From: Opitutales bacterium
Lineage (GTDB): Bacteria; Verrucomicrobiota; Verrucomicrobiia; Opitutales; UBA9783
Assembly: GCA_046881885.1 (NCBI GenBank)
Contig: JBKSMP010000024.1
Coordinates: 60,001-92,000 of the forward strand
Reading direction: 5' to 3'
DNA length: 32,000 bases
In this document: in pieces, positions 23,698 to 25,863 of the stretch
Layout: the number at the start of each line of letters is the position of its first letter
How positions within the stretch are numbered: position 1 is the first letter of the stretch
Translations under genes and position numbers: made by a program
The notes under the pieces: model-generated
What the model was told of the DNA's origin: nothing
Database searches by the model: none
What the model saw: the letters and a program-made list of their open reading frames with translations, nothing else

Positions 23698-25863
23698 TTA
23701 ATTATTCGGCAGAACAGCTTGCCAATGACCTGGTGTATAAAGCAAAACAATAGGATTGTTACCTGCCTTGCGTAATGCTGCAGCAAAATTCTCATAAGGA
23801 ACAATGCCATTATCAGCATCTGAATTTAATACCATAAATAAGTGATTTACCGGATCATCATTTGCGAAATCAGCATTATAAACACTGTTAATAACAATGA
23901 CTTGTCTTCCATGTTCAGCGGCTATTCTAAAAATAGCTTGGCGTACTTCTTCATTATCCAAGGGTAAATAATGTTGTTCGCGTTCATTTTGAGGCGTTTC
24001 ATTTGTTACCATTTGAGATAAATTTTGAACATCTGGAAACATCGTTCTCCTTAATTGTTCAGCCTGTTGCCACTGATTATCGCCCCTTTGTACAGAACTA
24101 AAATTAGAATTTGGATTCAGAGCCTGTAAAATAGCATAAAAACCACAATTTCCATCTCCAGTCACATTTTGAACATGATAACCACTATTTCCCAATTCGC
24201 TAATAATGGTTCCTTCATTGTTCATATAAAAATTTATAGCATTTCTCATTTGTACAATGCAATCATCAACAACATGAATTTCTTCTTCCGGAAGTGCTTC
24301 ACCACGCATAACAGCCATCAACTTTTCTGCTTCTGCTTTTATCGGCAACACATAATTATCCCATTCTTCCTGTTTAAGCCATTCAGGTTTGCTATCGAAA
24401 TTAATATAACTCATATATTTTTCCAAAGAATTATGACTGATAAAATTATAGAATTTATCATATTGGGATTCTATGGCAGTTATTTGATCTTGTGTATAAA
24501 ATTTTACTTTATTTATAATTTCATCTAATTCAAATTCAAAATCTTCTGTAATCAATCTATCCATATAGTCTTGCATCAATTCTTTTAAAATATCGATGTT
24601 GATGTCCTCATAAGGAGGTAACCATACAGTTTGACCATGATCTTGAAAATTAATATAATCAAGAGCTGTAAATAAACTAAAAAGACTATCGATATTATAT
24701 TCCAAAAACGGTAGATAGAAATTTGCAATAGTACTATCCAAAAACACATTATTATTTGTATTATTACTAGAAATCGGTTCAAATTCCTCTAATTGAACAC
24801 CATAGAAGTTTTCTGTTTCAATAAAATGAAAAGTAGCTTCCCTCCACAAATCAGATAATATACAAAAGAAATTCTTAAATTGGGCACGATTTTGGAAAGG
24901 AATCACATCTACTTCATTAATTTTGTATGCAAAAGAAGACAAAATATTTGACAAAAAATTATCATTTCTATTTACAAGAATGATGCTTTCTACTTTTGGA
25001 TCTGCTTCTAAACATTCTATTTGTTCTATAAAATTTTTATTTTCTGATAGATCTATTGAAACTTTAGAAAAAGCATACATTGGTTCATGTTTTATAGCCT
25101 TGTAGGTATTGAACGAAATAGCTCCAAAAAAAATTATTTTTTTGAATTTTAGGAACTGATCATTTTGTATTGCTTGATAAATTTCTCGTTCTGCATCTAG
25201 TTCATTATCCCCAAATAAGTTTACTATACCAAATTTAACATCACGCTTCTTTTCTTTTAAATGCGCCAATACTTTTGGAAAATCTTCAATATTTTCAAAA
25301 CTAACATTTTCAAAAACAATGAATTCTGTGTTCTTATTATTAATATAAATTTTCTCAACAATATCAATTATATCTGTCCCATATACTTCATATCGTATAT
25401 TATATATTTTAACAGTAGAATTTTTATCTAAAATCAAATCTGTTGCCTTAAATACTTGTTGTGTCTGTATTTGTGAGTATAAGGTTTTGTTTTTCTCGGT
25501 TATAGCAACTGGATTTTTACGCATCCGATCTGCAATATTTTTATCTATTTTACTTACTTGCACTAAATTAAGCAATGCGTCAGCATCTAAATACTGAGCA
25601 ACGATTTGTTTACTATATATATCTAATTTAGCCATAAGATCGTTTATAGCTTGATCGGGATTATCAACACCTGCTTGTCTGAGTTTATTTTTAGCACTAT
25701 TTAGATCTCCTCGTTTTATTGCGTCTCTTACCATTTGTTTTATTTCTCTCCATTTGGGTGTATTCAAAAACTTTTCTAGAGTTATTCCAAATGCAGCATT
25801 ACTTGCTGTTGCTATTGTACCAGCGCTCAATAACACATTTTTTAATAATTTTTTATAATTCAT
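23698..25863 (-). CDS. Large secreted effector-like protein: signal peptide, F-box-like motif, repeat-rich middle, C-terminal OTU cysteine protease
   Basis: GGAAGGA lies 7 nt before the ATG at 25863 (MNYKKLLKNVLLSAGTIATASNAAFG). The F-box-like LDIYSKQIVAQYLDADALLNLVQVSKIDKNIA maps to 25522-25626. OTU Cys loop NVTGDGNCGFYAILQAL and His loop LLYTPGHWQAVL lie within 23701-24180. Confidence 0.7.
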   Translation of the reverse strand: MNYKKLLKNVLLSAGTIATASNAAFGITLEKFLNTPKWREIKQMVRDAIKRGDLNSAKNKLRQAGVDNPDQAINDLMAKLDIYSKQIVAQYLDADALLNLVQVSKIDKNIADRMRKNPVAITEKNKTLYSQIQTQQVFKATDLILDKNSTVKIYNIRYEVYGTDIIDIVEKIYINNKNTEFIVFENVSFENIEDFPKVLAHLKEKKRDVKFGIVNLFGDNELDAEREIYQAIQNDQFLKFKKIIFFGAISFNTYKAIKHEPMYAFSKVSIDLSENKNFIEQIECLEADPKVESIILVNRNDNFLSNILSSFAYKINEVDVIPFQNRAQFKNFFCILSDLWREATFHFIETENFYGVQLEEFEPISSNNTNNNVFLDSTIANFYLPFLEYNIDSLFSLFTALDYINFQDHGQTVWLPPYEDINIDILKELMQDYMDRLITEDFEFELDEIINKVKFYTQDQITAIESQYDKFYNFISHNSLEKYMSYINFDSKPEWLKQEEWDNYVLPIKAEAEKLMAVMRGEALPEEEIHVVDDCIVQMRNAINFYMNNEGTIISELGNSGYHVQNVTGDGNCGFYAILQALNPNSNFSSVQRGDNQWQQAEQLRRTMFPDVQNLSQMVTNETPQNEREQHYLPLDNEEVRQAIFRIAAEHGRQVIVINSVYNADFANDDPVNHLFMVLNSDADNGIVPYENFAAALRKAGNNPIVLLYTPGHWQAVLPNN

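Follow-up and report, generated by a model that had tools for sequence, protein, structure and literature searches.

The 32,000-nt stretch of Opitutales DNA analysed here (hereafter the window) contains, on its minus strand, a gene for a protein of 721 aa, listed at NCBI as MAG hypothetical protein ACLRFH_03965 of an Opitutales bacterium (MAG, metagenome-assembled genome) on a contig of 128.7 kb. Sequence comparison indicates that residues 77-170 are homologous to the N-terminal domain of Entamoeba-type BspA-like leucine-rich repeat (LRR) proteins, and residues 548-721 form, as judged from profiles and a structural model, a divergent OTU/otubain-like cysteine protease domain. We favour, as moderately probable, the reading that this is an exported effector-like protein, the module of which would dock to a protist partner while the OTU domain would deconjugate ubiquitin or a ubiquitin-like modifier (Ubl). 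That bacteria have OTU effectors, and protist symbionts eukaryote-like domains, is well established; OTU deubiquitinase effectors are known from Legionella, Chlamydia and a few others. The novelty lies in the phylum, in an OTU clade missed by curated models and in the use of an Entamoeba-type BspA N-terminal domain. If true, bacterial OTU effectors would extend to Verrucomicrobiota by way of a clade that current Pfam models do not detect. The features of the gene and its product are as follows:

23698..25863, minus: whole coding sequence, 721 aa plus stop
25871..25878, minus: Shine-Dalgarno-like AAGGAAGG, 7 nt upstream of the ATG, read from the sequence
25795..25863, minus: Sec-type signal peptide MNYKKLLKNVLLSAGTIATASNA, aa 1-23, from inspection and conservation
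25636..25794, minus: helical region after the leader, aa 24-76, conserved in P0009, P0026 and P0032
25354..25635, minus: conserved module, aa 77-170, from phmmer, profile and pairwise comparison
25522..25626, minus: F-box-like stretch LDIYSKQIVAQYLDADALLNLVQVSKIDKNIADRM, aa 80-114, with 25 columns aligning to F-box helices H2-H3 in hhalign
24883..25353, minus: region aa 171-327, alternating strand and helix in a low-confidence prediction; possibly LRR-like (phi-x-phi-x-x-N) as read by eye
24301..24882, minus: conserved helical middle module, aa 328-521, including EWDNYVLPIKAEAEKLMAVMRGE, common to P0007, P0014, P0018, P0031, P0005 and P0037
23701..24222, minus: OTU/otubain-like papain-fold cysteine protease domain, aa 548-721, from profile, model, fold search and conserved residues
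24145..24156, minus: codons of Asp570-Gly-Asn-Cys573 (DGNC), Cys573 being the predicted nucleophile, from alignment and model
23725..23727, minus: codon of His713, predicted general base, from alignment and model

Here and below P-numbers denote homologous proteins obtained in the searches and L-numbers the loci of relatives.

Modular build and the C-terminal protease domain

A word-indexed search with the whole 721-aa protein recovered only the protein itself. Its modules became visible because an exhaustive search was made with phmmer, which screened 1.84 billion representative proteins and gave 55 matches. These fall in four separate blocks:

aa 1-106: P0009, P0026 and P0032
aa 77-177: the N-termini of many other proteins
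aa 328-521: P0007, P0014, P0018, P0031 and others
aa 548-720: about 30 proteins of very different lengths

The same parts recur in different combinations. All four parts, from the leader through module and middle part to the OTU-like domain, follow one another in P0005 (703 aa, 41% identity) as they do in the 721-aa protein. P0037 and P0043 have the first three of these and lack the protease, and in P0007 the leader is joined straight to the middle block. Such a block pattern is, on sequence grounds, that of a shuffled effector-like family. Scans of JGI metagenomes did not find relatives with the full 721-aa protein, and with the OTU alignment they gave only distant matches to the Cys motif. 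The first-pass annotation of this DNA had raised, and left unclaimed, the possibility of an LRR-like middle; neither an LRR hidden Markov model (HMM) nor LRR_5 matched residues 171-327 or the middle of the protein. TIM-barrel-like PDB fold matches of aa 1-550 in the full-length model were dismissed, as they fall on low-confidence residues.

The C-terminal domain was assigned from several independent lines. Asp570, Cys573 and His713 are invariant in a 17-sequence family alignment, where they lie within GDGNCGFYAILQAL and LLYTPGHWQAV, and the residue at His+2 is Q, K, D, E or N across the OTU-like family. A search of the PDB with the single sequence gave nothing. With the 17-sequence family profile, eight of the 14 matches at E<=10 were OTU proteins, none strongly significant; OTUD3 (E=0.0062) and the C. 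elegans otubain-like protein 4dhi/4dhz (E=0.013) headed the list, and the alignment to the latter takes in both the Cys and the His motif, in order. These were followed at E 0.5-2 by OTUD7B, A20 and three nairovirus polymerase chains, which we take to be viral OTU domains. Weak Peptidase_C65 matches were obtained for 11 of 27 relatives (best 1.7e-5). The AlphaFold model is confident over aa ~555-720, with a predicted local distance difference test (pLDDT) score of 70-91. A strand comes first in it, then a helix (573-582) that Cys573 opens, a helical arm and a sheet, the last beta-strand of which (713-719) begins with His713. In BFVD the best fold match of the model (E=6.5e-4, probability 1.00) is a protein with an OTU domain, and Foldseek against the PDB gave the OTU domain of yeast Otu2 (7pl7, probability 0.85, template modelling score 0.49 on the target) as well as 8c83_x.

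Because the invariant residues, the PDB profile search, the AlphaFold model and the fold searches agree, residues 548-721 are here assigned to a divergent, predicted clade of OTU/otubain-like cysteine proteases. The OTU domain that the first-pass annotation had placed in the last 160 residues is thus retained as an OTU-like cysteine protease, with boundaries (aa ~548-721) slightly wider than proposed. The top fold match is an OTU protein, and the Pfam scores all lie below cut-off. The strings quoted in that annotation, LDIYSKQIVAQYLDADALLNLVQVSKIDKNIADRM (25522-25626, aa 80-114), GDGNCGF (24139-24159) and PGHWQ (23719-23733), are all found at the positions given for them.

The OTU-fold enzymes that have been characterised have ubiquitin or a Ubl as their target, and by analogy with these the domain would be expected to deconjugate ubiquitin or a Ubl. 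A few relatives appear to have lost catalysis: in P0028, P0047 and P0048 the catalytic Cys is replaced (GDGND, NDENN, DDDND), in two of them together with the His (DRWQAV). From their sequences these are probable pseudo-enzymes that may retain binding to a ubiquitin-like protein. The closest OTU-like homologue, with 70% identity, is encoded at L002 (Logan SRR35641740, a contig present in 16 samples) and carries, within 3455-3470, an in-frame TGA exactly at the Gly of GDGNC, which splits a 390-aa HExxH protein from the protease. Recoding of UGA as Gly was rejected, as TGA also terminates other genes of that contig; the codon is probably a nonsense mutation that has become fixed, with loss of the catalytic loop.

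An Entamoeba-type module and its resemblance to F-boxes

The module at aa 77-170 has the consensus KLDxYSxQIVxxYLxxxxDFxNxIQVxKKFxxxLDRFRINPIPITxxxKxLFxxIQTQQxF, the LDIYSKQIVAQYLDADALLNLVQVSKIDKNIADRM stretch forming its first third. In the phmmer search it matched the N-termini of BspA-type LRR proteins (e.g. P0029, 2.6e-11; P0040, 3.8e-6), a profile search with the module gave 41 matches, among them a named E. invadens protein, and pairwise comparison with E. invadens EIN_282300 showed 43% identity over 69 aa (E=2e-16). The named members of the module family are E. invadens BspA-family proteins; most of the other members come from short ENA metagenome contigs. Most relatives lack a signal peptide and have the module at their very start, and in those long enough to show it, BspA-type LRRs (PF13306) come next. 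The bacterial copies are diverged and have an insertion. Lorenzi et al. (2010) described a novel N-terminal domain of 50 aa in 85 of 116 E. histolytica BspA-like proteins, the role of which they treated as speculative, proposing an export signal or an anchor (PMC2886108). The function of this N-terminal domain, carried by the largest family of Entamoeba surface proteins, has been unexplained since then, and its position beside a ubiquitin-type protease suggests an intracellular role in protein interactions.

The opposite can be argued: that the module is a bacterial export, anchoring or surface domain which Entamoeba acquired together with BspA-like genes, such that the 721-aa protein would act outside the host cytoplasm on a substrate other than ubiquitin. 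A prokaryotic origin is assumed for the BspA-like LRR genes in both Entamoeba and Trichomonas (PMC2843621), and the speculation of Lorenzi et al. about export or anchoring points the same way (PMC2886108). Sec-type leaders are present on the 721-aa protein, P0005, P0037, P0043 and P0055, and the divergence and insertion of the bacterial copies imply that the module is not a very recent arrival in the Opitutales lineage. However, in the searches run, the module was found in only a handful of signal-peptide-bearing, bacterial-looking proteins, all other matches being N-termini without a signal peptide, and the two contigs fetched for such proteins have a G+C content (GC) of 16% and 24%. In the bacterial proteins it is internal, behind a classical signal peptide, and hence not needed for export there. 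Characterised OTU-fold enzymes, moreover, act on ubiquitin or Ubl. We regard this alternative as improbable.

In a protist-type copy of the module at L011 (1102-1557; ENA ERZ28654569, the contig of 24% GC), an in-frame TGA stands in the place of the conserved Arg of LDRFR, where the database protein reads Trp, and there is an apparent frameshift into the LRR open reading frame (ORF) that follows. This gene is either a pseudogene or the product of an assembly error.

The first-pass annotation had read the LDIYSKQIVAQYLDADALLNLVQVSKIDKNIADRM stretch as an F-box, the pairing of which with a deubiquitinase domain would couple hijacking of the SCF (Skp1-cullin-F-box) ubiquitin ligase to removal of ubiquitin. 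Stated as an alternative, the module would be a true, very divergent F-box that binds host Skp1, and the protein would dock to an SCF ligase while carrying a deubiquitinase. Several comparisons lean this way. With a diverse 17-sequence alignment of the module (A3), hhalign against a validated F-box profile gave a probability of 65-69% over 25 columns with a score of 27, and scores of 27.1 and 19.3 compare with a maximum of 16 over 150 column shuffles of each alignment, a lenient control because shuffling destroys helix periodicity. Reading of alignments A3 and A6 shows that protist members keep a gap-free register from L-D (corresponding to L-P) to V-x-K-K-F (corresponding to V-x-K-x-W). Of 42 members, two have a weak match to Pfam F-box (best E=0.024), one of the two being the target segment (E=0.15), and one has a weak match to F-box-like. 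The protist module stands at the extreme N-terminus of LRR proteins that lack signal peptides, which is the FBXL-type layout, and the full-length model has, at low confidence, three helices over aa 69-116.

Against this, the hhalign probability drops to 12%, again over 25 columns, with a more uniform alignment of 42 sequences (A4). At E<=1 the whole protein has no match to the Pfam F-box models PF00646 and PF12937, and the segment alone reaches 12.5 bits with PF00646 for a cut-off of 20.5. A custom F-box HMM was made from ten sequences; it recovers 49 distinct PDB sequences, nearly all of them named F-box proteins, and detects Legionella AnkB (E=4.7e-4), but gave nothing at E<=1 among the 953 ORFs of the window. 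Other weak Pfam matches of the module are commoner (DUF7355 in five members, Tt1218-like in four), and a search of the PDB with the module profile gave no F-box protein. The hallmarks are missing as well: the 721-aa protein reads L-D, with Asp in place of the Skp1-contacting Pro of LP, and V-S-K-I-D, with Asp in place of the Trp, and the family consensus (L-D and V-x-K-K-F) lacks them too. AlphaFold of the module with the 42-sequence alignment gave a pLDDT of 51.8, too poor to judge, and Foldseek with this model found neither an F-box nor any meaningful match in the PDB. F-boxes have nothing that corresponds to the second half of the module (DRFRINPIPIT...LF..IQTQQ.F), which is strongly conserved. 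In E. histolytica, a BspA-like protein is reported at the cell surface (a finding cited in PMC2886108), where an SCF adaptor would not be expected.

From its sequence the module is not demonstrable as an F-box, and we consider this alternative rather unlikely; a remote F-box ancestry is possible. The F-box call as such is unconfirmed, with HMM scores below threshold, the Pro of LP and the Trp missing and a structural model of pLDDT 52. By the hhalign shuffles, the stretch is closer to the F-box consensus than composition alone would make it; its similarity stays below every HMM threshold. What survives of the proposed pairing is a host-type targeting domain fused to a deubiquitinase-like domain, which is a reasonable description, while SCF hijacking is unproven. 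A literature search found no link between Entamoeba BspA proteins and F-boxes. If the domain were an F-box after all, more than 100 BspA-like proteins of Entamoeba would be adaptors for SCF substrates, not simple adhesins of the cell surface, and the 721-aa protein would be a Skp1-docking deubiquitinase.

Export, effector role and genomic setting

The reading frame can be opened at an upstream TTG (23698..25911) or at an ATG (23698..25863, 721 aa). The ATG at 25863 is the likely start codon because the Shine-Dalgarno sequence AAGGAAGG lies upstream of it and homologues begin at the same leader; the ribosome-binding site is strong. The start MNYKK/MNHKK is common to P0007, P0009, P0026 and P0032 at the same position as in the 721-aa protein, and P0009 shares 66% identity with it over aa 1-106. 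In the leader MNYKKLLKNVLLSAGTIATASNA, which AF follows, the n-region is basic and the h-region moderately hydrophobic (over 11 aa the Kyte-Doolittle maximum is 1.74), and small residues, S and A, occupy -3 and -1. The signal peptide, which was already proposed in the first-pass annotation, is thus supported by inspection of its n-h-c layout and by the same leader in four homologues. The MNYKKLLKNVLL leader is the Sec-type leader of a small paralogous family, and the 721-aa protein is probably secreted.

An effector-like context comes from a relative. In a scan of one genome per prokaryotic species, the OTU-like family was found in two Puniceicoccales MAGs and one Opitutales MAG, with a doubtful match of 13 residues in a Paracaedibacteraceae MAG. 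In the Puniceicoccales MAG JAITJL010000027.1 (L006, 7644-11182), the OTU-like gene, which lacks a Sec leader, is immediately followed by a gene for a CesT-family chaperone (29.7 bits, cut-off 22) and then by the gene for a type III secretin (SctC) with a SPI-1-type N0 domain. In sequence terms this is the classic layout of effector, chaperone and apparatus, and it indicates a type III secretion system with a putative OTU-like effector in Puniceicoccales. Elsewhere the OTU-like domain is fused to BspA LRRs (P0016), a metallo-beta-lactamase fold (P0015) or an M91-like region (P0006). P0016 (519 aa) has BspA-type LRRs (PF13306, E=3e-25) joined directly to the OTU-like domain; parts of the BspA family and an OTU-like protease have therefore been combined more than once.

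In the proposed mechanism, the Sec-type leader would export the protein, which would then reach the cytoplasm of a eukaryotic (protist) cell. There the protist-type module would bring it to the host partner normally bound by the BspA-like N-terminal domain, and the OTU domain would strip ubiquitin or a ubiquitin-like modifier from nearby proteins. Verrucomicrobia related to the class of the Opitutales include intranuclear and cytoplasmic symbionts of protists (PMC8204192), and the source bacterium probably lives in or on a gut protist. As far as known, the domain is otherwise confined to BspA-like proteins of the Entamoeba type and is therefore a rare sequence clue to the eukaryotic partner of an uncultured gut bacterium. 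A literature search found no link between Opitutales and Entamoeba. A bolder extension, to which we give only a small chance, is that the source bacterium is an undescribed symbiont or parasite of Entamoeba-like protists, with a captured BspA-like N-terminal domain wired to a new OTU clade, this domain perhaps being a cryptic, highly derived F-box.

A number of points weigh against an OTU effector acting in a protist. Whole, the 721-aa protein has no Pfam OTU/otubain match; its C-terminal 195 aa alone score 17.8 bits with PF10275 (cut-off 24.3) and 12.9 bits with PF02338 (cut-off 23.3), and ten relatives scored one by one all stayed below the curated Pfam OTU/otubain cut-offs. The Entamoeba N-terminal domain is itself of unknown function (PMC2886108), and judged from the sequences the module may have passed either from protist to bacterium or the reverse. 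The lifestyle of the MAG is deduced from gene content and relatives. The protein has a Sec-type leader, unlike type III effectors, and neither a secretion system nor type III secretion genes are visible in the window; for these two reasons, delivery into a eukaryotic cell remains a proposal.

The contig is bacterial because ordinary bacterial genes surround the 721-aa gene (TatD, acetyl-CoA carboxylase beta, thioredoxin-reductase-like, M42 peptidase, DJ-1). The gene itself lies in a low-GC island (20700-25950; 29% GC, the left flank having 38% and the right flank 37%) that also holds a 561-aa gene and a 173-aa ORF, a composition consistent with acquired or fast-evolving effector genes. These two neighbours are:

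20751..22436, minus: 561-aa protein, HEFLH motif in its N-terminal part and another, distantly related OTU-like domain at aa ~381-550, from Pfam and profile
22644..23165, minus: 173-aa ORF between the OTU genes, with a signal-peptide-like N-terminus and a Cys-rich C-terminus, no family match

The HEFLH of the 561-aa protein is a metalloprotease-like HExxH motif. Its C-terminus has a sub-threshold Pfam OTU match (E=7e-4) and is matched by the family profile of the OTU-like domain of the 721-aa protein (E=1.5e-9). The earlier statement that the two OTU domains are far diverged was borne out, as BLASTP between the 721-aa and 561-aa proteins gave 24% identity over 62 aa; the family profile still links them. 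Pairing of HExxH with an OTU-like domain recurs at L002, in P0006 (with a weak Peptidase_M91 match) and at L006, where the HEMLH protein of 285 aa has a gene of its own. Homology between the HExxH regions of the 561-aa neighbour and the L002 protein was rejected, since they have the motif alone in common, and the 173-aa ORFs beside the 721-aa gene and beside the L001 homologue proved unrelated.

A RhuM/Bro-N and Fic protein is encoded at 27333-28328 (minus), 1.5 kb upstream of the 721-aa gene, and corresponds almost end to end to PADLOC candidate PDC-S23 (E=2e-121). Further ORFs of the window have no Pfam family at E<=0.001, namely 3-2729 (plus, 908 aa), 2775-3878 (minus, 367 aa), 14036-15358 (plus, 440 aa), 7640-8134 (plus, 164 aa) and 9792-10199 (plus, 135 aa). 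They might include more lineage-specific or effector-like proteins.

This setting bears on another account, in which the 721-aa protein would be a polymorphic toxin used between bacteria, a housekeeping protease of the periplasm or a defence component. Features that would suit it are the signal peptide, the conserved papain-like domain at the C-terminus behind an N-terminal part that varies, the small ORF downstream and the upstream RhuM/Fic gene of a candidate defence family. On the other hand, PADLOC matched none of the three island proteins, and nearby there are neither genes for E1, E2 or Ubl nor genes for toxin delivery (Rhs, T6SS, CdiB-type) or an immunity-like cytoplasmic partner. The 173-aa ORF downstream has a signal peptide of its own, the 721-aa protein contains a eukaryote-type domain and a relative stands beside type III secretion genes. 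This account is highly improbable, and anti-phage defence or a bacterial ubiquitin-like system was rejected on the lack of PADLOC matches and of E1, E2 or Ubl neighbours.

Comparison with known systems

The bacterial OTU effectors Legionella LotA-D (LOT deubiquitinases; PMC7690952), Chlamydia ChlaOTU and Escherichia albertii EschOTU (PDB 6w9s) resemble the 721-aa protein in having an OTU domain of papain fold, with a Cys loop of the DGNC type and a His towards the C-terminus, and they too carry the OTU domain as one module of multi-domain proteins in host-associated bacteria. EschOTU is among the weak PDB profile matches. The 721-aa protein is nevertheless too distant from all of them for a significant match, and its family has been seen in Opitutales and Puniceicoccales MAGs and in metagenomes only. 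Unlike those effectors it has a Sec leader instead of a type III/IV signal and is fused to a protist-type domain, and its activity is a predicted one.

Otubains and OTUD3 (PF10275 Peptidase_C65; PDB 4dhi/4dhz, 4bou) are the best profile matches of the family, with the motifs GDGNC...(A/I)L and (L)LY-P-GH-(W/Y) aligning in order. The domain of the 721-aa protein, however, is ~170 aa long as compared with 243 positions in the Pfam profile, and the N-terminal ubiquitin-binding helix of otubains is absent from it.

The N-terminal domain of Entamoeba BspA-like proteins (PMC2886108) has the same conserved positions across the alignment. In Entamoeba it stands at the extreme N-terminus with BspA-type LRRs (PF13306) next, whereas in the 721-aa protein it is internal, behind the signal peptide and a helical region of 53 aa, and is followed by a region without an LRR_5 match and then by the OTU-like protease. 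The aromatic residue of KKF is also lost (SKID). As read from the sequence, the protein shares the Entamoeba domain and not the architecture of that family.

With the F-box effectors Legionella AnkB/LegU1 and Agrobacterium VirF the protein has in common the concept of a eukaryote-type adaptor domain and a weak, partial profile similarity to helices H2-H3. AnkB is caught by the custom F-box HMM, and the 721-aa protein lacks the LP and Trp hallmarks. A further parallel is the expansion of ubiquitin-system genes in the amoeba symbionts Candidatus Amoebophilus asiaticus and environmental Chlamydiae, protist-associated bacteria in which eukaryote-like domains and OTU or USP proteases accumulate; the 721-aa protein differs in coming from Verrucomicrobiota and in carrying a domain of the Entamoeba BspA type rather than an F-box, U-box or ankyrin domain.

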